From: a virus
Virus record (IMG/VR): IMGVR_UViG_3300025012_000027
Coordinates: 74,027-138,026 of that record
Reading direction: 5' to 3' (one strand)
Length of the DNA stretch: 64,000 nucleotides
How positions within the stretch are numbered: position 1 is the first letter of the stretch; each line of letters begins with the position of its first letter. The notes under the pieces were generated by a model that did no database searches, was not told the origin of the DNA, and worked only from the letters and a program-made list of their open reading frames with translations. This document shows positions 4,103-45,399 of the stretch, in pieces. The position numbers were made by a program, and so were the translations under genes.

Positions 4103-5194
4103 ATGTCAAAACTTATCATTGTCCCCATTGAACCGATCGAATCTCGGTATACCTCTCAGTGGTATAAGTTCCTGCCAGGTTTTATTAAAGAAAATACGTC
4201 GTTTGATTCAATCGTCCATCTAGAGATTGACAAAGAAGTTCCTGAAAACACTTCTGGTGGGTTCTTTAACTTCAATTTCACGTGCGAGTATAAGGCCGCG
4301 CAATTCATCTCATTATCTGAGATGGTTAAACGTGGTGAGATACAAGACGGTGATGTGATCTTCTATACAGATTACTGGAACCCAACGGTTCATATGACTC
4401 GATACATTCTCGATCTAAATGGAATTCGTGCAAAGATCGTTGGATTTGCTCACGCAGGAGACTGGGACCCAGCTGATATTCTACATCAAAAGCTAGTTAA
4501 TAAACACTGGTCTTGGACTACTGAGATGTCATTGCATCAGGCATATGATCAGATTTATTTCTCGACGTACTTTGCTCGACAGTTGTATGCTAATAATCTT
4601 GGGGCAGATCTAGTATATGCTGCAGGTGCAGACCTCATCGTAACAGGGTTCCCGATGGAATATTATGATGAAGTTCTCCCATCATACTGGGATCTTGAAT
4701 CACCTGTTAATAAAGAAGACTTGATAGTATTCCCTCATCGAATCTCAGATGAGAAAAACTATAAACTATTCAAGATACTTGAGCGTAGGTTGCCGCAATA
4801 CAAATTCGTTGTGGCGATGGAAGTGTGTAAAACGAAAGATGCGTATCACGATCTATTGTACCGAAGCAAAGTAGCATTCTCGGCTGCATTGCAAGAAACA
4901 GGCGGCATAAGTATGGGCATCGAGTCTCTACGAGCAGGCTGTATGACTATAGTTCCTGATCGACTATCATATGCTGAAATCTTTGACCAGTGGGATTTGA
5001 AGTTTGCCGGTGATGTTGCGGATTACGTCGTCACGGAAGATAATGATCCATGTGTCGATATCCTAGTCGATACTATAGTGAAGGCATTCGAAACCTGGAA
5101 CATCGAGGTTATCAAGAAACAACATGATTTGAATTACGCAAAGTATTTCACTGGCACAATTCTTTATGCTGCATTGGATACGTTCAATGAATAA
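4103..5194 (+). CDS. hypothetical protein, possible second GT-B glycosyltransferase
   Basis: ORF track; FPHRISDEKNYKLF and GGISMGIESLRAGCMTIV resemble GT-B C-terminal domain. Confidence 0.35.
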   Translation: MSKLIIVPIEPIESRYTSQWYKFLPGFIKENTSFDSIVHLEIDKEVPENTSGGFFNFNFTCEYKAAQFISLSEMVKRGEIQDGDVIFYTDYWNPTVHMTRYILDLNGIRAKIVGFAHAGDWDPADILHQKLVNKHWSWTTEMSLHQAYDQIYFSTYFARQLYANNLGADLVYAAGADLIVTGFPMEYYDEVLPSYWDLESPVNKEDLIVFPHRISDEKNYKLFKILERRLPQYKFVVAMEVCKTKDAYHDLLYRSKVAFSAALQETGGISMGIESLRAGCMTIVPDRLSYAEIFDQWDLKFAGDVADYVVTEDNDPCVDILVDTIVKAFETWNIEVIKKQHDLNYAKYFTGTILYAALDTFNE

Positions 5195-5702
5195 TATAAT
5201 GCTGGACATTGAAACTTTAGGCACGTCTTCTAATAGCATCATCGTATCTATAGCCGCAGTGGCGTTCAACTTCAAAGATGATATTACCGAAGATTTGTTG
5301 CTAAACTGTTCTCCAAAGAGTAGCAAAGCCCTTGGTATGGTGTCTGATGCTGATACAGTACAATGGTGGGCTGAGCAACCCGCAGAAGTTCGCAATGCAT
5401 GGATGGTAGATCAACGACCTATCACAGACGCGCTAACCACATTATCCGAGTTTGCCGGTACTCAATGGAAGAATGTTGTTTGGTGGTCTAATGGGATGAA
5501 CTTCGATTTCCCAGTATTGGAATGGAGTTATAAGGCTGCAACCATTCCAGTTCCATGGAAGTATTGGAATCTGCGAGATGTTAGAACGGTGTATTCTGTG
5601 TTTGATTTAAACTTTCGAGAATTCCCGAGGGTCGGTAAGTATCACAATGCTATTGATGACTGCAAAACTCAAATCGCTGCCCTGAAATCCGTACTAATCT
5701 AG
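5187..5702 (+). CDS. DEDDh 3'-5' exonuclease (DnaQ/RNase T-like)
   Basis: MLDIETLGT (Exo I), ...HNAIDDCKTQ (Exo III H-x4-D); start 5187 or 5199. Confidence 0.7.
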   Translation: MNNIMLDIETLGTSSNSIIVSIAAVAFNFKDDITEDLLLNCSPKSSKALGMVSDADTVQWWAEQPAEVRNAWMVDQRPITDALTTLSEFAGTQWKNVVWWSNGMNFDFPVLEWSYKAATIPVPWKYWNLRDVRTVYSVFDLNFREFPRVGKYHNAIDDCKTQIAALKSVLI

Positions 5703-5743
5703 TCGGTTAGTTCTCTTTCTTAAATAATAGAAAGAGAACTAAA

Positions 5744-6103
5744 ATGTCCAATAATGTATCTGAAGAATCTTGGTTTAAACACCAATGGAGACCCACGACT
5801 GCTTGGGTCTATCTTGCCATCTGTCTTTTCGACTTCCTGATAGCACCCATTCTAACCGCTGTATATTTTGCAAAATATGGTGGTGACTATGTTGCTTGGA
5901 AGCCGATATCATTGTCTGAAGGTGGATTGTTCCACATGGCAATGGGCGCAATCTTAGGTATCACTAGCTGGACTCGTGGTCAAGAGCGAATCTCATCAGC
6001 TAGATATCGATCAGAACATTCGTATAGGTCAGACGACCGTGCCCCATATCGTTCTACCACGGAGACTGATTTCAGGGATAACCTGATCAATGATGACAGA
6101 TGA
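5744..6103 (+). CDS. membrane protein, putative holin
   Basis: Two predicted TM helices; immediately upstream of and overlapping the endolysin. Confidence 0.5.
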   Translation: MSNNVSEESWFKHQWRPTTAWVYLAICLFDFLIAPILTAVYFAKYGGDYVAWKPISLSEGGLFHMAMGAILGITSWTRGQERISSARYRSEHSYRSDDRAPYRSTTETDFRDNLINDDR

Positions 6104-31582: not shown

Positions 31583-32431
31583 ATGTTTTTAGTTATTGTT
31601 AGTTTGTTGGGGTCGTTGGTCCTGGCGGTTGGATTATACGCAGTTCTTGACTTTCGAGCGTTGTATTCTGGAATTGCGGGGATTGCTGTGTTCGTGATTG
31701 CTTTGTTGGTGGGCAGCTTTACCGTTATCAGCGCTGGTCACACTGGAGTACAGGTTACTCTGGGAGAAGTTAATATCGTTCCGTTGACTGAGGGGGTTCA
31801 TTTAGTTAACCCGATTAGCTCGGTGAAAGATGTCGATGTAAGGCTGCAGAAAGCAGAGCTGAAAGGAGCCAATGCTGGGACCAAAGATTTGCAGGTGGTG
31901 CATACTGATATCGTGGTGAATTACCGATTGAATGCACCAAAAGTTCCTCATATCTACAAAGAATTTGGACTCAACGTTGATGAGAAAGTTCTTGGCCCGG
32001 GCATCAATGAAGCGTTCAAGAGCGTCACTGGACACTTTACCAGTGAAGAATTGATCACGAAACGAGATATCGTGAGTCAAGAAATTCTCGAGCATTTGAA
32101 GACTAAGATGGCTCCGTTTAATATCGATGTTAGTGGGATCAGTTTGGTAAACTTTGGATTCAGTCCGGAGTATCAGAAAGCCATCGAAGCCAAGGTTATT
32201 GCTACACAATCAAAGTTGAAAGCTGAACAGGATCTTGCACGTATTGAAGTTGAGGCGCGTAGTCGAATTGCTCAAGCTAAGGGCGAAGCTGAAGCGATCA
32301 GTATCCAAGCTCAGGCGATTCAATCAAATGGCGGGGCTCAGTACGTGCAACTTCAAGCCATCGAAAAGTGGAATGGGCAGCTTCCAACGACTGTCTTGAG
32401 CGGTAGTGTCCCGTTTGTAAATATCAAATAA
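31583..32431 (+). CDS. SPFH/band-7 (prohibitin/HflKC-like) membrane protein
   Basis: N-terminal TM helix, SPFH-like core, C-terminal Ala/Gln-rich coiled coil. Confidence 0.65.
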   Translation: MFLVIVSLLGSLVLAVGLYAVLDFRALYSGIAGIAVFVIALLVGSFTVISAGHTGVQVTLGEVNIVPLTEGVHLVNPISSVKDVDVRLQKAELKGANAGTKDLQVVHTDIVVNYRLNAPKVPHIYKEFGLNVDEKVLGPGINEAFKSVTGHFTSEELITKRDIVSQEILEHLKTKMAPFNIDVSGISLVNFGFSPEYQKAIEAKVIATQSKLKAEQDLARIEVEARSRIAQAKGEAEAISIQAQAIQSNGGAQYVQLQAIEKWNGQLPTTVLSGSVPFVNIK

Positions 32432-32843: not shown

Positions 32844-33394
32844 CCACTGTATATGATTATTTTAGTTCTATTGGCCGGGCGATGACCGCATCTGAATACT
32901 ACGGTTGGGATTGTTATGGTCCGACTGCAAGGGTTGTAGACCACTGGCGACAAGGTGATAATGAGTTAACGGCATGCTGTGTTTTTGATTCTGTTACATC
33001 GGTAGTGTATGAACTTGATCTATGTATGGTTGCAGAAAGGACTGCTCTTCGCTGGATAAATCCAGAGTATGAAAATACATATCTAGCAGAGGCTGAGAAT
33101 CGACAAATCTCTGATGTTGCTTGGGACGACGTCGAGTTTCAACGAGTTTCGTCTGCGGATACCATGCTGTCTCTTATACGCAAAGTAGTCGATGATCCAT
33201 CAGTCACGTTGTCAGATGCGGCATCTGCATTGGATAACCCAGTCGACACATCTGAGATTCGGCTTGAACTTACAGAAGATGAGATGTTCAAATTGATGAA
33301 GATGGCCCATGAACATGACGTCAGTTTAAATCTGTTTGTTAGTTTGATCTTGCAGAAATATGTTGATGAATATCAGGAGAACAATAATGGCTAG
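32840..33394 (+). CDS. hypothetical protein
   Basis: ORF track. Confidence 0.5.
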   Translation: MTTVYDYFSSIGRAMTASEYYGWDCYGPTARVVDHWRQGDNELTACCVFDSVTSVVYELDLCMVAERTALRWINPEYENTYLAEAENRQISDVAWDDVEFQRVSSADTMLSLIRKVVDDPSVTLSDAASALDNPVDTSEIRLELTEDEMFKLMKMAHEHDVSLNLFVSLILQKYVDEYQENNNG

Positions 33395-33704
33395 GTCGGT
33401 GATTATGATGACGGATGGTGTTGAAGTTAAGAAAGTCCCGATCGGATATTCTTGGACGGTGCTTTTCTTCAGCGGATTTCCGTGCTTGTTTAGGCAAGAT
33501 TGGGTGTGGGGAGCAGTTCTAATCCTGTGCAATCTCTTTAGTTATGGTATTGTGGGCATCGTATGCTCGTTCTTCTATAACAAAGTTTATGCTAAGACCC
33601 TAGTGGATCGAGGATTCTATATCCACCATTTGCCGCCAACTGAATCAAACGAGTCAATCCTCGCATACTTAGGTTACTTGAAATTTCCGCATTCGAAAGT
33701 TTGA
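33387..33704 (+). CDS. membrane protein
   Basis: ORF track; start after AGGAGAACAATA RBS; two TM helices. Confidence 0.45.
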   Translation: MARSVIMMTDGVEVKKVPIGYSWTVLFFSGFPCLFRQDWVWGAVLILCNLFSYGIVGIVCSFFYNKVYAKTLVDRGFYIHHLPPTESNESILAYLGYLKFPHSKV

Positions 33705-33806
33705 TGGTTGGTTGGGCTCTTAAATAGGCTCTACGGAATAACGTGTTGAATTCATGATTTAGGTTTATACTCATAAAACGGATTAACGTGTAGAAAAGGA
33801 TTCGAT

Positions 33807-34454
33807 ATGACAAAAGAACGCTTCGGGGTGGCTGAACTCATCCTTCGGGAGGTTTGCGAGATGGACCCCGATGACCCGGAGAAGAGCGACACCATTTGTA
33901 TTGATGTGTCCACCTTGAAGCGGGTTATTGACGCCCACATTAGTGAGACGGACGAGCGCCACGGGCTGGACAGCGACACTCGCGTCTGCTTCTATGAGCA
34001 GGATTTTTACGTCCTGTCGAACTTCAGCTCGTTCAATCTTGTTGGCGGGTTCTATGGAAGCCCCCAGTCTGATGGCATCACATTCGCTACCAGTGAGCAC
34101 GCCTATCACTGGCATAAGTTCCAGCCGACCGACAGCGATTTGGCCGATGCCATTCTGTTCGCGCCGTCTGCTCACGACGCCTTTAAGCTTGCCGAGCGCA
34201 ACAAGGTAAATCGTTGGGACCGATGGGACGAATTCAAGGTGGAAATCATGCGCGACATCCTGCGAGCCAAAGTGACCCAGCACGAATACGTGCGCCGAAA
34301 GCTCCTGGCGACAGGCGACCGCGAACTGGTTGAGAACTCGTGGCGCGATGACTTTTGGGGGTGGGGACCAACCCAGGATGGCGCAAACATGCTGGGCAAG
34401 CTTTGGATGGAAATCAGAGCCGAAATCCGCGCAAAGGATACCCCTGACAATTGA
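33807..34454 (+). CDS. NADAR (YbiA-like, DUF1768) domain protein, IS passenger
   Basis: FYEQDFYVLSNFSSF, FATSEHAYHWHKF, WRDDFWGWGPTQDGANMLGKLWMEIR match NADAR conserved blocks. Confidence 0.7.
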   Translation: MTKERFGVAELILREVCEMDPDDPEKSDTICIDVSTLKRVIDAHISETDERHGLDSDTRVCFYEQDFYVLSNFSSFNLVGGFYGSPQSDGITFATSEHAYHWHKFQPTDSDLADAILFAPSAHDAFKLAERNKVNRWDRWDEFKVEIMRDILRAKVTQHEYVRRKLLATGDRELVENSWRDDFWGWGPTQDGANMLGKLWMEIRAEIRAKDTPDN

Positions 34455-34457
34455 TGG

Positions 34458-35924
34458 ATGACTGACATCCTCGACCTTAAAGGCTGGACGGTGCTCTCCA
34501 AGTCTCAATCCGATGGTGAATACGTGATTGAGGCCGAGTACACCATTCAGCCCGCCAACTGCCCAAAATGCGGGGTTGTTGACACTCCATACAAGCATGG
34601 CGTAAAGCCCATCAGGTATCGCGACAGCCCCATCAGGGGTTCCGCTGTGGTCATCCTGGCCAACGTCCAGAGGTACAGGTGCAAGCACTGCAAGGAGACG
34701 TTCCTTCAGCCATTGGAAGGCATTTACCCTGATATGAGGATGACACAGCGCTGTGTTGAGTACATTGAAACCCAGTGCCTTCGGGACACCTTTGTTCGGA
34801 TTGCCGAGCATATTGGCTGTGATGACAAGACTGTAAGGACCGTTGCTGGCACTTACATTGACTCCATGAATGCCAAGTTCAAACCCTGGCTTCCTGAGTG
34901 GCTGGGCATTGATGAAACACAGATTGACGGCGAACTCCGATGCATCATCACTGATGTGGTCAACCGTAAGCCGGTGGATATGCTGCCCAATCGTGACAAG
35001 GTGTCGGTCACGGCATGGCTGTACCAGTTCAAAGACCGGCGCACCGTCAAGGGATTGGCCATTGACATGTGGCGTCCATATAAGGATGCAGCCCAAGCAG
35101 TGTTCCCCGGCCTGCCTGTAGTCATTGACAAGTTCCATGTAGTCAAGATGGCCAACAAGGCTTTGGAGGACATTCGCATTGCCCTTGCCAAAGACCAGCC
35201 CAAGGCAGTCGGCAAGGACTGGATGAGGCGCAAGGCACTGCTGCGGATGCGGTACAAGAATCTGGATGAAAAGGGCCGGTTTGCCCTCAGCATGTGGCTG
35301 GACAACGAACTGGCTCTCAAAGTCGCTTACGACCTCAAAGAAGCCTTCTATGACATCTACGATGCCCCTACCAAGGCAGAAGCTGGAACCCGGCTGGATG
35401 CTTGGCGCAACTCCATTCCCGCAACCATGAAGAAGGGGAAAAAGAGCTTTGCGCCCCTCATTACCGCCACGAAGAACTGGCGAGAAGAGATTCTTGCCTT
35501 CTTTGACCACCCCATCAGCAACGGGTACACAGAGGCTCTGAACGGCGTTGCCAAGGTAACCAATAGGCAAGGCAGGGGCTACAGCTTTGAAGTCCTCAGA
35601 GCCCGCGTTTTGTTCTCCAAGATTTCCAGAGTCCCTGTTACTGAAGAGGATGAGGTAACGGAAGTAGAGATGCCAGAACCCGAACAGGTTGAGGTAGTCA
35701 TCCATAACCCAGCCCGTACCGTGCGCCACATGCTGCTTTACAAGTACAAGAACAGGTGTCAGTCCTGTCTTGGAGTGTTTCCCCCATCCGAGCTTTATGT
35801 CGCTCGAATGGGTGTCTTCCTTGAGGATGAACCAATGAAAAACAGGACGTTGATGTGTGCCCCTTGCAAAGAGCGTTTCCACACAGATGGAATTAAGCAT
35901 GTTCATTCAACTTCCACACCTTAA
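34458..35924 (+). CDS. ISL3-family transposase (zf-ISL3 + DDE_Tnp_ISL3) with about 100-aa Cys-containing C-terminal extension
   Basis: N-terminal CPKC...CKHC zinc finger; DHPISNGYTEALNGVAKVTNRQGRGYSFEVLRARVLF matches the ISL3 C-terminal signature; stop lies inside IRR. Confidence 0.8.
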   Translation: MTDILDLKGWTVLSKSQSDGEYVIEAEYTIQPANCPKCGVVDTPYKHGVKPIRYRDSPIRGSAVVILANVQRYRCKHCKETFLQPLEGIYPDMRMTQRCVEYIETQCLRDTFVRIAEHIGCDDKTVRTVAGTYIDSMNAKFKPWLPEWLGIDETQIDGELRCIITDVVNRKPVDMLPNRDKVSVTAWLYQFKDRRTVKGLAIDMWRPYKDAAQAVFPGLPVVIDKFHVVKMANKALEDIRIALAKDQPKAVGKDWMRRKALLRMRYKNLDEKGRFALSMWLDNELALKVAYDLKEAFYDIYDAPTKAEAGTRLDAWRNSIPATMKKGKKSFAPLITATKNWREEILAFFDHPISNGYTEALNGVAKVTNRQGRGYSFEVLRARVLFSKISRVPVTEEDEVTEVEMPEPEQVEVVIHNPARTVRHMLLYKYKNRCQSCLGVFPPSELYVARMGVFLEDEPMKNRTLMCAPCKERFHTDGIKHVHSTSTP

Positions 35925-35969
35925 TCCGCAGAGCCCTTAAATAAAAGAGAATACTTCAGGGACCATACT

Positions 35970-36746
35970 ATGTCACAAGATACACTCGTAACCGAATCCG
36001 CCATTGCATATATTATGATGCAAGAATCAATTTTGCTTGAATCTCGATTAGATTACCTAAAGGCAAATACTCCTCCATTGTCTACGGATCATGATACTAC
36101 GGCTATTCATAAAGATACACCAAGCATCATCCAGCACTTTGCGGATAATGCTGATCCAACCCCAAACAAGCAACGCACGCAATACATCGTTGGATTGTAT
36201 CGCGCTAAGAAGATTCGACAAGAAGATGCGCCTAGAATTAAAGAAGCTTTGTCGTCATTTGAAAAATACAAACACAAATTAGATCCATCAGAGAAACAAC
36301 TCACCGTGTCTGCATATCCAACGGTTGCTAGTATTGAAGATAAAATGGTCCCGCATGTGGGCACCATGGCAACAAAACGTGAAGCTGAGCGCAATCTAAA
36401 TCAACCCGGCCACGAGTTGAAGTACGATGATGAGAACATCTCGATATATCATTTGAAAGACAAAGAGACTTCCCAGAATTTGTATGGTGGCGGTCATCAA
36501 CGTGGCGGTACCGGTACATCATGGTGCACTGCTGCTAGATCCAAAGATTGTATGTTTGATCAATATGCAAAAGATGGACGATTACACGTATTGCATGATA
36601 AAAAGACTGGTAGTGTGTATCAATACCACACTAAATCTGCGTCGTTTATGGATGCTAAAGACAACGAGATTTCACCGGAAGATTTCAAAGCAATTGCTCC
36701 AAGTTTTCATAAGGCCATTCTTTCTAATCCCGATCTGTTAAAATAA
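35970..36746 (+). CDS. hypothetical protein
   Basis: ORF track; first gene after the IS. Confidence 0.55.
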   Translation: MSQDTLVTESAIAYIMMQESILLESRLDYLKANTPPLSTDHDTTAIHKDTPSIIQHFADNADPTPNKQRTQYIVGLYRAKKIRQEDAPRIKEALSSFEKYKHKLDPSEKQLTVSAYPTVASIEDKMVPHVGTMATKREAERNLNQPGHELKYDDENISIYHLKDKETSQNLYGGGHQRGGTGTSWCTAARSKDCMFDQYAKDGRLHVLHDKKTGSVYQYHTKSASFMDAKDNEISPEDFKAIAPSFHKAILSNPDLLK

Positions 36747-37339
36747 TGAATGTACGCAAACTTTTTCTAGCCAAGTACGGGGCTAAAGACCATCTCGATG
36801 AATTGGTTAATGATACTGATTTGGTTGTTAGGGATGCTGTAGCTAAAAATCCATCCGCAACGAAAGAACATCTAGATACGCTCGTTAATGATAAATCCGA
36901 GTATGTTAGAGAATCTGTAGCCAGTAACCCAAATGCCTCGAAAGAGCATCTAGATAAACTAGCGGCGGATAATCACTTCTATGTTAGAGCGGCAGTAGCT
37001 CAGAATCCAAACGCCTCGAAAGAGCATCTAGATAAACTTGTTAACGATATAGACTGGCATGTTAGACGCGATGTAGCTCGGCATCTAAACGCCTCGACCG
37101 AACATCTAGATAAGCTGGTTAGTGATGCAGCCGAGTATGTTAGACACGCTGTAGCTAAGAATCCAACTGCCTCGAAAGAGCATCTAGATAAACTTGTTAA
37201 CGATGATGATTGGCATGTTAGAGTCGCTGTAGGTCGGCATCCTAATGCTACTAAAGATCATCTAGATAAGCTGGTTAGTGATGATAACAGTGATGTTAGA
37301 CGTGACGCGAAAGAAAATCTAACGAAAAGAAAACTATGA
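36746..37339 (+). CDS. repeat protein, eight 23-aa LRV-like repeats, copy 1
   Basis: Repeating EHLDKLVND..x.VR..VA.NPNASK unit; 69-bp DNA periodicity. Confidence 0.6.
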   Translation: MNVRKLFLAKYGAKDHLDELVNDTDLVVRDAVAKNPSATKEHLDTLVNDKSEYVRESVASNPNASKEHLDKLAADNHFYVRAAVAQNPNASKEHLDKLVNDIDWHVRRDVARHLNASTEHLDKLVSDAAEYVRHAVAKNPTASKEHLDKLVNDDDWHVRVAVGRHPNATKDHLDKLVSDDNSDVRRDAKENLTKRKL

Positions 37340-37932
37340 CCGATCAACGACACGAATTTCTGGCTAAGTATGGTGCTAAAGAGCATCTAGATAAGTTGGT
37401 TACTGATAAAAGCGAGTATGTTAGAGAATCTCTGGTATCAAATCCCAGCATAACTAACGATCATCTAGATAAGTTGGTTACTGATGAACACCCGGGTGTT
37501 AGACACGCTGTAGCTAGAAACCGAACTGCTTCGAAAGAACATCTAGATAAACTGGTTACTGATAAAAACGAGTATATTAGACGTAGTGTAGCTCGGAATC
37601 CAAATGCAACTAAAGATCATCTAGATAAACTGGTTACTGATAAAAGCGAGTATGTTAGAGAAGCTGTAACCAAGAGTCCAAATGCTTCGAAAGAACATCT
37701 AGATAAACTAGTTAACGATAGAGATTGGCATGTTAGAGAATCTGTAGCTAGTCATCCAAATGCAACTAAAGATCATCTAGATAAGTTGGTTACTGATGAA
37801 CACTGGGGTGTTAGACGTGCGGTAGCTAGTAGTCCAAATGCTTCAAAAGAACATCTGGATAAGTTGGTTACTGATGAACACGTATATGTTAGCCGTGTCG
37901 CGAAAGAGAATCTAGCGAGTAGAAAACTTTAA
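37336..37932 (+). CDS. repeat protein, LRV-like repeats, copy 2 (tandem paralog)
   Basis: Same repeat architecture; ATGA overlap with copy 1. Confidence 0.6.
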   Translation: MTDQRHEFLAKYGAKEHLDKLVTDKSEYVRESLVSNPSITNDHLDKLVTDEHPGVRHAVARNRTASKEHLDKLVTDKNEYIRRSVARNPNATKDHLDKLVTDKSEYVREAVTKSPNASKEHLDKLVNDRDWHVRESVASHPNATKDHLDKLVTDEHWGVRRAVASSPNASKEHLDKLVTDEHVYVSRVAKENLASRKL

Positions 37933-42887: not shown

Positions 42888-43913
42888 ATGCCAAAGCAAT
42901 ACAATACCCTAGTCTATATCGGTCGGTTTCAACCAGTGCACCTGGCACATTTGGAAATTATTCGTCGCGCCACTGAAATGGCAAACCAAGTGATTATTAT
43001 CATTGGTAGCGCAGACCAACCGCGAACATACAAAAACCCATTTACTCGTCAAGAACGAGCGGCTATGCTGCATCCCGTGTATAATATGGGGGATATGGAA
43101 TCTGCTATTCGGATTGAAGACGTAACCGATTCAACGTACAATAATCTTGCATGGGCTACCAAAGTACAAGCAATCGTTGCAAAACATAGCTATGCAGGTG
43201 ATTCTATTGGCATCATAGGACACGAAAAAGATGAATCAACATTCTATTTGAGAATGTTCCCTCAATGGAAGTTTGAAGATGTTGATCTGATCGAACCACT
43301 AAATGCAACGGACATTCGAAATTTGTACTTCAAACGATCTGGGAACATGAACTTCATTAAGAGCGTGGTCCATCATTCAACGTTTGACTTCTTATCGCAG
43401 TTTGCCCATACCCCTGCATTTGAACAGATCATTCGTGAGCGTGAGTTCATTGACTCATATAAAATGCAATATGCATCGCTGGCTTACCCGCCTATATTCG
43501 TAACCACCGATGCCGTCGTGCTGTGTTCCGGCCACGTACTGATGGTTAAGCGTAAAGCAGAACCTGGCAGGGGATTGTGGGCGCTCCCAGGGGGCTTCTT
43601 GAATGCCTATACCGATGCAAGCATTCAAGCTGCTGCGATTAGAGAGCTTAGAGAAGAAACTGGCATCAAAGTTCCTGCCCCTGTATTGGTGGGTAGTATC
43701 GTAGACTGTAAAGTGTTTGATGCTGTTGACCGAAGTGCTAGAGGTAGAACAATAACCCATGCTTTCAAGATAGTGTTGCTTGATGGCATGCTACCAAAGG
43801 TGCGTGGGGCGGATGATGCCGAGAAGGCAAAGTGGGTCCCATTGGCAGACGTGAAACGATCTGAATGCTTCGACGATCATTATGAAATTATTGCGACAAT
43901 GATTGGCGCGTAA
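42888..43913 (+). CDS. bifunctional NMN adenylyltransferase / Nudix ADP-ribose pyrophosphatase (NadM-Nudix, NatV-like)
   Basis: GRFQPVHLAH NMNAT motif; Nudix box GGF...AAIRELREETGI. Confidence 0.8.
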   Translation: MPKQYNTLVYIGRFQPVHLAHLEIIRRATEMANQVIIIIGSADQPRTYKNPFTRQERAAMLHPVYNMGDMESAIRIEDVTDSTYNNLAWATKVQAIVAKHSYAGDSIGIIGHEKDESTFYLRMFPQWKFEDVDLIEPLNATDIRNLYFKRSGNMNFIKSVVHHSTFDFLSQFAHTPAFEQIIREREFIDSYKMQYASLAYPPIFVTTDAVVLCSGHVLMVKRKAEPGRGLWALPGGFLNAYTDASIQAAAIRELREETGIKVPAPVLVGSIVDCKVFDAVDRSARGRTITHAFKIVLLDGMLPKVRGADDAEKAKWVPLADVKRSECFDDHYEIIATMIGA

Positions 43914-43965: not shown

Positions 43966-45399
43966 ATGAAAAACTCAATTCTATTGAACACAGACAGCTA
44001 CAAAGTGAGCATGTGGCAGCAGTACCCACAAGGCACCGAATATGTGTATTCATACATCGAATCTCGAGGCGGCGAATACGCTGAAACTGAATTCTTGGGC
44101 GTCCAAGCACTTGCGAAATATCTATCAATCCCCATCACGCTAGATGACATTGACCTCGCCGACAGATTATGGACTGCTCACGGCGAACCATTCAACCGAG
44201 CTGGATGGGAATACATACTCAACACATATCAAGGTCGACTGCCAATTCGTATTCGGGCGGCAAAAGAGGGGCTCATTATCCCAACTAAAAACGTTCTGTG
44301 TACCATTGAGAACACAGATCCGAAATGCTATTGGCTCACTACGTGGGTTGAGACTGCCGCCCTTCGAGCGATCTGGTATCCAACTACCGTTGGCACTATT
44401 TCGTGGAACATCAAACAGTTCATTCTAAAATACTTGGATAAATCTGGCGACCCGTCTACTATTGCTTTTAAACTGCATGACTTTGGTGCTCGCGGTGTTT
44501 CTTCTGAAGAATCTGCTGGTATTGGCGGTGCAGCACACCTGGTCAATTTCATGGGTACGGACACTATGTCTGGCATTCTTCATGCTATGTCTGTTTATGG
44601 TGGAGACGTATGTGGCTATTCTATCCCAGCAGCAGAACACTCTACCATAACGAGCTGGGGGCGAGACAACGAAGTGAACGCATATCGTAATATGCTTACG
44701 CAATTCGCAAAGCCTGGATCGGTCGTCGCAGTTGTTTCTGACTCTTACGACATCTACAACGCATGTAATCTGTGGGGAACAGAACTCAAGCAACAAGTGA
44801 TCGACAGTGGAGCGACGGTTGTTATTCGCCCGGATTCAGGTGATCCGATCGAAGTGTTATCAAAGATGCTGCGTATTCTTGAAGAACGATTTGGTGCACC
44901 GAAGAACGCCAAGGGGTACAAAGTTCTTAACAATGTACGAGTGATTTGGGGCGACGGGATCAACATCCAAAGTCTCGAAGCAATTCTTACGCATATGGTC
45001 GACTTCCTCGGGTACAGCGCAGACAACTTCGCATTCGGCATGGGTGGCGGACTATTGCAACAATGCAATCGAGACACCTTGAAGTTCGCTATGAAGGCGT
45101 CCGCAATTGGGGTTCGCGAGACTAGACTCGATGAGTTCTGCGGGGATGAAGATTACACGAGCTCGGTGGTGTGGCGTGATGTGTTCAAAGATCCAATCAC
45201 TGATCCCGGCAAATCGTCCAAGAAAGGTCGAGTAACACTTTGGGAATCTGGCGGACACTATGAGTCCAGCGTAACTCAGCCGACTAAATGGACCGATCGT
45301 GGATTTGAATGGAAAGAAGCTATGGAAACATACTTTGAAGACGGCGAAGTAACGTTCACGCAAACGTTTGAGCAAGTGCGATCAAACCAACATATCTAA
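43966..45399 (+). CDS. nadV: nicotinamide phosphoribosyltransferase (Nampt/NadV)
   Basis: N-terminal ILLNTDSYKVSMWQQYP and overall Nampt-family length/architecture. Confidence 0.8.
   Translation: MKNSILLNTDSYKVSMWQQYPQGTEYVYSYIESRGGEYAETEFLGVQALAKYLSIPITLDDIDLADRLWTAHGEPFNRAGWEYILNTYQGRLPIRIRAAKEGLIIPTKNVLCTIENTDPKCYWLTTWVETAALRAIWYPTTVGTISWNIKQFILKYLDKSGDPSTIAFKLHDFGARGVSSEESAGIGGAAHLVNFMGTDTMSGILHAMSVYGGDVCGYSIPAAEHSTITSWGRDNEVNAYRNMLTQFAKPGSVVAVVSDSYDIYNACNLWGTELKQQVIDSGATVVIRPDSGDPIEVLSKMLRILEERFGAPKNAKGYKVLNNVRVIWGDGINIQSLEAILTHMVDFLGYSADNFAFGMGGGLLQQCNRDTLKFAMKASAIGVRETRLDEFCGDEDYTSSVVWRDVFKDPITDPGKSSKKGRVTLWESGGHYESSVTQPTKWTDRGFEWKEAMETYFEDGEVTFTQTFEQVRSNQHI

Follow-up and report, generated by a model that had tools for sequence, protein, structure and literature searches.

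A NADAR gene carried by an ISL3-family insertion sequence in a T4-like phage genome from groundwater

How does a phage come to hold a gene that may undo a host defence? A 64,000-nt stretch of viral DNA (positions 74,027 to 138,026 of IMG/VR record IMGVR_UViG_3300025012_000027; hereafter the window) poses this question at one locus, where a gene for a NADAR protein lies inside an insertion sequence (IS) of the ISL3 family. The record is a 213-kb contig from groundwater metagenome run SRR1658465, of which these 64 kb were examined. T4 AdfN and two unrelated phage NADARs strip ADP-ribose from guanine and defeat the defence system DarTG1, and the study that showed this concluded that phages have gained NADARs several times from different sources, without proposing a vehicle for these gains (PMC11257639). 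We propose, with a probability of roughly 0.6, that an ISL3 element with a swappable cargo slot brought the NADAR gene into a T4-like phage, where the protein would shield phage DNA from DarT1-type attack.

The element spans 2209 bp on the plus strand (33727..35935). Its left terminal inverted repeat (IRL), GGCTCTACGGAATAACGTGTTGAA at 33727..33750, is 24 nt long and 83% complementary to the right repeat (IRR; minus strand, 35912..35935), which overlaps the final codons of the transposase gene. In the 19-nt core, GGCTCTACGGAATAACGTG (33727-33745), the IRL differs from the reverse complement of 35917-35935 at 3 of 19 positions. A search of the 64 kb for GGCTCTACGGAATAACGTG at up to three mismatches returned two sites where 0.03 were expected, and both are the repeat arms. 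Directly outside the repeats stand two identical copies (8/8) of a target-site duplication (TSD), CTTAAATA, at 33719..33726 and 35936..35943. The first 70 bp (33727..33796) form a conserved left end that comprises the IRL, the hexamer TATACT (33766-33771) and a subterminal direct copy of the inner IRL, ACGGATTAACGTGTAGAA (33778..33795), which is 89% identical to 33733-33750 and 88% complementary to 35912-35928. This left end would hold transposase-binding sites and the element's own promoter. Two co-directional open reading frames (ORFs) follow on the plus strand: the NADAR gene (33807..34454, 215 aa), preceded by the Shine-Dalgarno sequence AAGGA at 33796-33800, and the transposase gene (34458..35924, 488 aa), whose ATG comes 3 nt past the NADAR stop codon. 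The element is an intact ISL3-family IS built as a two-gene operon, with left end, NADAR gene with its own ribosome-binding site, and transposase gene in that order.

Two signatures of the ISL3 family are present at the DNA level, namely inverted repeats that open with GGCTCT and are conserved in relatives (a 17-mer of the IRR also ends the P0008 elements) and an AT-rich 8-bp TSD on both sides. The original prediction, made from the sequence without database searches, had described a 2209-bp ISL3 element with 19-nt repeats matching at 16 of 19 positions, a perfect 8-bp direct repeat around it and a 215-aa NADAR ORF upstream of the transposase. All of these features stand, the repeats extending to 24 nt and the family assignment being carried further by the protein models and DDE residues given below. 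The GC contrast that it noted is also real (53.0% for the element, 55.6% for the NADAR gene and 52.7% for the transposase gene, against 43.4% for the rest of the window), although the quoted value of about 57% is reached solely in single 300-nt windows. An Rfam scan of 33000-36600 returned no family match. We dismissed a 707-aa antisense ORF (33783-35906): strong family matches support both ORFs on the sense strand, and the antisense frame is a by-product of the high GC content of that coding strand.

The transposase scores 294.8 bits against the NCBIfam ISL3 model NF033550 (cut-off 180). Its DDE domain (residues 149-384) reaches 187 bits against Pfam DDE_Tnp_ISL3 (cut-off 23) and its N-terminal zinc ribbon (residues 32-78) 45 bits against Zn_ribbon_ISL3 (cut-off 25.5), with HTH_Tnp_ISL3 at 21.2 bits, under the cut-off of 27.4. 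The residues D152 (GIDET), D224 (IDKFH) and E359 (GYTEALNG) are invariant in 15 relatives. The N-terminus MTDILDL is likewise kept in the 15 relatives, and because of this conservation we prefer the ATG at 34458 to a shorter, 477-aa gene call. Beyond the DDE domain lie 104 further residues with the pairs C434-x2-C437 and C467-x2-C470, so that both the N-terminal finger and the roughly 100 extra C-terminal residues with a CxxC...CxxC ribbon were correctly foreseen. An alignment of 15 transposases shows that the C-terminal pattern RCxSCxG ... CxxCxxRFHT ... STP is conserved throughout the clade; here it reads RCQSC...CAPCKERFH (35754..35882, plus strand, residues 433-475). Pfam HNH recognises this region in the relative P0111 (33.7 bits against a cut-off of 21.4) and weakly in P0010. 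It has no match in the transposase of the window, in which the position of the catalytic His reads YVARM. The C-terminus is an HNH-derived Cys4 finger, degenerate in this protein, whose nuclease activity is probably lost. We know of no account of an HNH-derived C-terminal finger in ISL3 transposases.

The cargo protein matches Pfam PF08719 (DUF1768) at 107.1 bits, with a cut-off of 35.1, and its NADAR core begins at about residue 50. Residues E97, K104 (seven after the Glu) and D181 (in a D-x-x-W-G motif) align with catalytic residues of YbiA and of a Phytophthora NADAR, and mutants of the E. coli C7 NADAR and of T4 AdfN have established the Glu, Lys at +7 and Asp as catalytic (PMC11543638, PMC11257639). 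In an AF2 model the core has a predicted local distance difference test score (pLDDT) above 90, and the fold matches those of YbiA (2b3w, TM 0.74) and of the Phytophthora enzyme, whose structure holds ADP-ribose (8bau, TM 0.61). These two are also the closest solved structures by sequence, at 61 and 37 bits, and share about 28-31% identity with the window protein. Both are chromosomal single-domain enzymes, and YbiA was first characterised as a riboflavin-intermediate N-glycosidase. By sequence and by predicted fold, the cargo protein is nearest to the YbiA branch and not to the DarT1-associated NADARs. Membership among the DarG1-type antitoxins of DarTG1 systems failed on two counts, the DarT1 neighbour and the N-terminal extension. 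The extension of about 50 aa found here is acidic and common only to the temperate-phage copy described below, whereas DarT1-associated NADARs have a basic beta-beta-alpha extension that forms a putative DNA groove (PMC11543638).

The window has no second NADAR gene. The cargo protein belongs to a bacterial and metagenomic subgroup whose members are 65-77% identical over the core, with very variable N-terminal extensions. Some of its members are fused to a Lar-type domain, as seen in the close relatives P0128, P0209 and P0212 (cores about 59-69% identical), which have an N-terminal Lar-type restriction-alleviation domain, and such fusions link the subgroup to phage counter-defence. The phage proteins T4 AdfN (gp30.3), NADAR-Bas32 and NADAR-Bas60 have the same catalytic Glu, Lys (+7) and Asp and are encoded without a partner toxin (PMC11257639). 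They have not been reported as transposon-borne, whereas the window NADAR is IS-borne, YbiA-like and equipped with its unique acidic extension.

Is the NADAR gene truly part of the mobile unit? A second copy, in a different kind of phage, provides the clearest answer. Window positions 33727-34721 match temperate-phage contigs L008-L017 over 995 bp at 98.7% DNA identity; the match opens at base 1 of the IRL, and the sequences flanking it are unrelated to the window. The NADAR protein, 98% identical, is found on at least 24 temperate-phage contigs between an integrase gene and a Cox/HTH_17-type excisionase gene, and it is followed by an 88-aa stub of the ISL3 zinc ribbon. In L008 the truncated copy occupies 4913-5923 and stops inside transposase codon 88, as it does in L009, L010, L014 and L016. 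A perfect 8-bp repeat of its own, TAAAAAAG, flanks the truncated copy on both sides, and hence the deletion runs exactly to the right terminus of the IS. Such a flush deletion could have arisen when cleavage at the right end was aborted and the DNA was then resected and rejoined, or through the use of a cryptic end. For the latter, the last 24 nt match the IRL at 4 of 24 positions in a hand comparison, which is unconvincing. The 24-mer expected for the empty site of this copy was absent from the metagenome and viral contigs. The temperate-phage NADAR protein is identical across variant phage backgrounds.

The start at IRL base 1, the separate TSD and the truncated transposase in an unrelated phage together argue that NADAR is true cargo that outlives the transposase, as the original prediction had it. 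Judging from these alignments, the same IS with its NADAR gene has entered two unrelated phages, remaining intact in the T4-like phage and losing the transposase while keeping NADAR in the temperate one.

We then asked whether the position of the NADAR gene is peculiar to this element. A clade search based on a 15-sequence transposase alignment retrieved 80 viral and 42 genomic loci, in which elements were delimited by inverted repeats and TSD. Confirmed matches to the clade number 112 in 2.9 million viral contigs and 42 in 32 million genome contigs, counts that came from different search patterns and form an uncontrolled comparison. Sixty distinct elements with an 8/8 TSD are 1.8-3.5 kb long, and 380-2100 bp separate their IRL from the start of the transposase gene. 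A and T make up 74% of the TSD bases, and positions 2-7 form an AT-rich core. In 53 of these 60, a same-strand ORF ends beside the transposase ATG, and these ORFs fall into 43 unrelated families. The distance from cargo stop to transposase ATG is commonly 0, -4 or 3 nt in the relatives. Aligned to L018, L031, L110 and L111, the window element is 88-97% identical over nt 1-70, shows no homology across the passenger and resumes its match 0-12 nt from the transposase ATG. With homology confined to the left end and the transposase, and with unrelated cargo between them, the passenger position is a replaceable slot.

The same picture emerges elsewhere in the clade. The closest transposases (82-88% identity), P0003 and P0008 among them, lie in phage contexts next to different upstream genes. 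Loci L097-L109, a distant subgroup from the single IMG/VR metagenome 3300045988, have transposase DNA 92-93% identical and identical inverted repeats, and they carry at least five passenger sets at differing TSDs; their left ends are conserved, with three IR-like repeats around a TGGTATAAT promoter. The P0003 element, which has two different TSDs, is carried by contigs of Mu-like phages that encode portal and Mor proteins, whereas P0008 lies in a contig with P22-like genes. One P0003 copy (L021, 411-2839) is flanked on the left by sequence from one insertion site (ATGTTTTC) and on the right by sequence from another (AAAACAAA), either through recombination between two copies or as an assembly chimera. 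The closest genomic transposases are from Polaromonas and other Burkholderiales. Xenophilus sp. Marseille-Q4582 holds one 2406-bp member three times (L118, L124 and L126), with passenger ORFs of 146 and 139 aa and three different TSDs, which points to transposition in the recent past of this Burkholderiales bacterium.

What does the slot carry? A Pfam census of 91 slot ORFs identified three N6/N4 methylases, one D12 methylase, one C5 methylase, three PAPS-reductase-like proteins and one each of DpdA, a Tad2-like protein, a weak Lar-like protein, a nucleoside deoxyribosyltransferase-like protein, a helix-turn-helix (HTH) protein, a SacI endonuclease and NADAR, the last being that of the window. 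Such passengers extend to distant members of the clade. Ranked by transposase identity to that of the window, they include the PAPS-reductase-like proteins of L018/L023 (88%), annotated methyltransferases in L002 and L003 (65% and 63%), DpdA in L043 (63%), an N6/N4 methylase in L082 (51%), a C5 methylase in L079 (44%) and the Lar-like protein of L090 (38%; below threshold). At 34% stand L099 with the Tad2-like protein (91 bits), L098 with the HTH protein and L109 with the nucleoside deoxyribosyltransferase-like protein. The recognisable minority of the cargo is dominated by DNA modification and counter-defence, a theme that the original prediction had guessed at from its one example. Ten small slot ORFs that were scanned had no Pfam match, and in GC-rich elements some of the slot ORFs may be spurious. 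NADAR is found as cargo only in the window element and its truncated sister copy.

Members of this clade have been recorded before. Elements of the Ralstonia ISRso21 type ('ISL3-like element ISRso21 family transposase') and those of R. insidiosa pB1903 have transposases 63-65% identical to that of the window over the full length, Cys4 finger included. Like the window element, they have GGCTCT...CGGAATAACGTGT inverted repeats, 8-bp TSDs (GGAATAGT; CTATCTTC) and a single passenger directly upstream of the transposase and coupled to it, at a total of 2.0-2.4 kb. They differ in their cargo, a SAM-dependent or site-specific DNA methyltransferase, and in their location on a megaplasmid or plasmid instead of a phage. 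The 2158-bp IS of Burkholderia phage Bcep22 (gp32 transposase, gp33 and gp34; TSD GTTCTTCT) belongs to the same clade at 63% identity and, like that of the window, lies in a phage genome with passenger ORFs upstream of the transposase. It has two passengers without recognisable function, and its host is a 64-kb podovirus-type Lessievirus, not a T4-like phage. When the flanks of the Bcep22 element were joined and searched against the phage collection, BcepIL02, BcepMigl and CSP3 matched continuously across the junction, which identifies the empty site: BcepIL02 has a single GTTTTTGT just past a terminator hairpin, where Bcep22 has GTTCTTCT, the IS and GTTCTTCT again. These occupied and empty sites, together with the two TSDs of the P0003 element, argue that clade members move in phages.

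Passenger-bearing members of the ISL3 family such as ISPpu12, and the general notion of a transporter IS, likewise involve non-transposition genes beside an ISL3 transposase between the inverted repeats. Their passengers are, as far as is known, fixed sets, in contrast to the single slot described here with its 43 families in 53 elements. The original prediction called passenger-bearing IS elements in phages rarely described. Few descriptions indeed exist, but the elements themselves are not rare: the Bcep22 IS was annotated and already listed (PMC3091744), and more than 100 clade relatives lie in viral contigs, so such elements are under-described rather than rare.

Where in its host did the window element land? 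By gene content the host is a distant T4-like phage from groundwater, in keeping with its earlier description as a phage genome. The window encodes both T4-type topoisomerase II subunits, a Dda-like helicase, nicotinamide phosphoribosyltransferase (NAMPT), an RNA ligase and many small same-strand ORFs. Among sequenced phages, T4-like Pseudomonas and Aeromonas phages come closest at the protein level, with about 44% identity at best, and megablast of the phage flanks against 50,697 phage records found no DNA match. The insertion point is a gap of 48 nt between genes in the reconstructed site, and the IS is co-oriented with all neighbouring phage genes. The upstream gene (33360..33704, plus strand, 114 aa) is undisrupted, its stop codon coming 14 nt before the TSD, and the downstream gene (35970..36746, plus strand, 258 aa) is intact; neither product has a family match. 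Relatives of the downstream gene are absent from the viral contig collection. Homologues at 64-71%, reached via a protein database, lie on phage contigs of 140-190 kb without an adjacent IS or NADAR gene.

The target itself resembles a promoter. The reconstructed site reads CTCTTAAATAA and ends 26 nt before the ATG at 35970, and AGATTAAATA(A) stands 23-28 nt upstream of the homologous downstream gene in 3/3 related phages. Elsewhere in the window, CTTAAATAA precedes ORFs at 5744, 23805 and 48302, and (C/A)TTAAATA(A) occurs in intergenic DNA, 8-53 nt before starts, at 5720, 23745, 47468 and 48267. In L154 the latter is found at 664, 1286, 3809, 3971, 6195 and 7763, within an extended TTATAACATTAAATA motif; all nine plus-strand copies of TTAAATA in its 8.7 kb are intergenic (9/9), most of them 8-31 nt ahead of a start codon. 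TTAAATA is biased toward non-coding DNA because it has stop codons in two frames, it is not enriched across the window (9 found, 11.7 expected), and the T4 late promoter consensus TATAAATA is absent from the 64 kb. From its recurrent placement, (C/A)TTAAATA(A) is probably the phage group's own promoter element, and the 8-bp duplication would then have copied a promoter-like element. The right CTTAAATA copy, 26 nt upstream of the ATG at 35970, would still serve that gene, and the left copy would point into the IRL, 80 nt upstream of the NADAR gene.

These observations suggest how the locus may have formed and how it may work. The IS, resident on a chromosome, plasmid or prophage of a Burkholderiales-type host, would have moved into the phage during infection. 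The NADAR gene would be transcribed from the IS left end, from the duplicated phage motif abutting the IRL, or from both, and cargo and transposase would be co-expressed, since translation of the transposase takes place downstream of the cargo gene. The protein would then strip ADP-ribose from phage DNA bases, most likely from guanine modified by a DarT1-type toxin, so that phage replication would be protected in hosts with a DarT1-type defence. We favour the assignment of the cargo protein as a putative DNA de-ADP-ribosylase protecting phage DNA because its catalytic residues are conserved and because of the published activities of phage and YbiA-type NADARs: every phage NADAR assayed to date counters DarTG1 (PMC11257639), and YbiA-type NADARs de-ADP-ribosylate guanine and can act as antitoxins to other ADP-ribosyltransferase (ART) toxins (PMC11125620). 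An anti-defence role is plausible in the light of the phage NADAR work.

Several results weigh against this proposal. At the level of the protein, the basic beta-beta-alpha extension of DarG1-type NADARs is lacking, and the acidic extension in its place is poorly modelled (predicted helical, pLDDT 49-72). The protein fails the NCBIfam model DS32_2 'NADAR family anti-phage protein' (64.2 bits against 240) and passes TIGR02464, the riboflavin-intermediate N-glycosidase domain (90.5 against 73.7), a domain-level match that is uninformative on substrate. No NADAR in the 50,697 phage records is more than 40% identical to it, and no DarT or ART gene lies within the element or its flanks, which makes it an orphan, like the phage NADARs. 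At the level of the locus, a promoter scan of the IS left end detected nothing that fits the sigma-70 consensus; TTGAAT and TATACT are spaced there by just 14 nt. The empty site predicted for related phages, GGTTGGGCTCTTAAATAAAAGAGAATAC, was not found: no metagenome contig contains the 28-mer of the reconstructed site as an exact match, and the 64-71% relatives, which are not syntenic upstream, permit a motif-level comparison only. At the level of the clade, members also occur in chromosomes and plasmids, and for about three-quarters of the cargo families no function can be recognised; the theme of counter-defence therefore derives from the remaining families.

Several of these points would fit an insertion that was a neutral or mildly harmful accident. 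NADAR would then bring the phage no benefit and would work for the IS or for the bacterium in which the IS resides. It might, for instance, be a YbiA-like N-glycosidase disposing of reactive riboflavin intermediates, or an orphan antitoxin that neutralises a toxin encoded on the chromosome. The riboflavin-type model match, YbiA as the closest solved structure, the chromosomal and plasmid members and the many passengers without known function are all what such an accident would predict. What it leaves unexplained is the persistence of the gene: NADAR is intact in the at least 24 temperate-phage contigs after transposase loss, the protein being identical across their backgrounds, and wherever a contig has the exact downstream phage gene together with upstream context, the IS is there too. 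In addition, the recognisable cargo of the clade is mostly DNA-modification and anti-defence, not metabolism, and a riboflavin-repair enzyme offers no obvious gain for an IS. We consider an accident unlikely, yet a contender to be taken seriously.

A different objection accepts that NADAR acts in counter-defence and questions its target, which might be cytidine or RNA ADP-ribosylation by ART toxins such as YarT. The YbiA-like branch has members whose partner toxins are not DarTs (PMC11125620), cytidine ADP-ribosylation is a further modification that NADARs undo (PMC12945103), and the N-terminal extension does not resemble those of DarT1-associated NADARs. However, all phage NADARs assayed, distant branches included, act on DarT1-modified DNA (PMC11257639), and the catalytic residues here are the same. 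An alternative target is in our view rather improbable. Given the acidic, poorly modelled extension and the YbiA-like affinity, modified guanine is a putative substrate.

Could the locus instead be a bacterial IS misjoined into a phage contig? The data are metagenomic and the GC content of the element is 10 points off that of its flanks, as a misjoin might give. The junctions speak otherwise. The left junction was assembled independently in L007, from sediment sample SRR944699, the right junction in L029, from groundwater run SRR1658467, and both are present in two different assemblies of SRR1658465. This recurrence in independent assemblies effectively excludes an assembly chimera, the outcome that the original prediction had named as fatal to it. 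Moreover, phage sequence is perfectly duplicated (8 bp) at both ends, and the IS lies between two phage genes and points the same way as they do. We regard a misjoin as very improbable. L007 was considered as a second genomic context, but its flank is identical to the window, so it represents the same phage and is useful as an independent assembly.

Finally, a NADAR gene native to the phage, beside which a plain ISL3 element landed, would suit the frequency of AdfN in T4-like phages (PMC11257639), but there is next to no chance of it given that the gene lies between IRL and transposase inside the duplicated target, has the GC content of the IS and not of the phage, travels with the IRL in an unrelated phage and is missing at this position from related large phages.

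Other genes near the insertion deserve mention. A Band_7/SPFH-domain protein is encoded at 31583-32431, three phage genes upstream of the insertion. Downstream, tandem paralogues of 197 and 198 aa (36746-37932) have LRV/HEAT-like repeats with a recurring 'KEHLDKLV.D' unit, and several copies surround the same locus in related phages. Farther along, a fusion of an NMN-adenylyltransferase-like domain with NUDIX (42888-43913) lies directly upstream of the nicotinamide phosphoribosyltransferase gene (43966-45399). NAD+ salvage pairs of this type are used by phages against NAD-depleting defences.

Passenger-bearing ISL3 elements, the IS of Bcep22 and NADARs as phage counter-defence are already known, and we found no description in the literature of ISL3 elements with counter-defence cargo in phages. 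As far as our literature search reaches, three things are new: a NADAR carried by an IS; the occurrence of one IS with its cargo in two unrelated phages, at a different stage of fixation in each; and a sharply bounded, variable slot in an ISL3 clade, enriched for counter-defence and DNA-modification genes.

The route by which phages acquire counter-defence genes is mostly unknown, and this locus suggests one vehicle. We see the candidate at two stages, intact and seemingly mobile in a T4-like phage, and without its transposase but with NADAR kept in a temperate phage. The view of IS elements as rare in phages is also qualified by the 112 relatives of one clade that a single scan of viral contigs returned. 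The slot is a natural chassis for placing genes into phages, and it supplies a search rule for candidate anti-defence genes, namely any ORF on a viral contig that lies between the conserved left end and an ISL3 transposase ATG.

Taken together, these observations raise a broader possibility, which we put forward tentatively, as slightly less likely than not: that this ISL3 clade is a widespread cargo shuttle for phages and other mobile DNA. Its members would have one slot, bounded by the 70-bp left end with its promoter and by the start codon of the transposase, through which unrelated genes are swapped, many of them for counter-defence or DNA modification (NADAR, DNA methylases, DpdA, Tad2-like proteins). 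By targeting AT-rich intergenic signals they would insert harmlessly, their cargo would be co-expressed, and phages would later fix the cargo by loss of the transposase. If this is true, the slot genes without known function would be a rich source of new anti-defence proteins.

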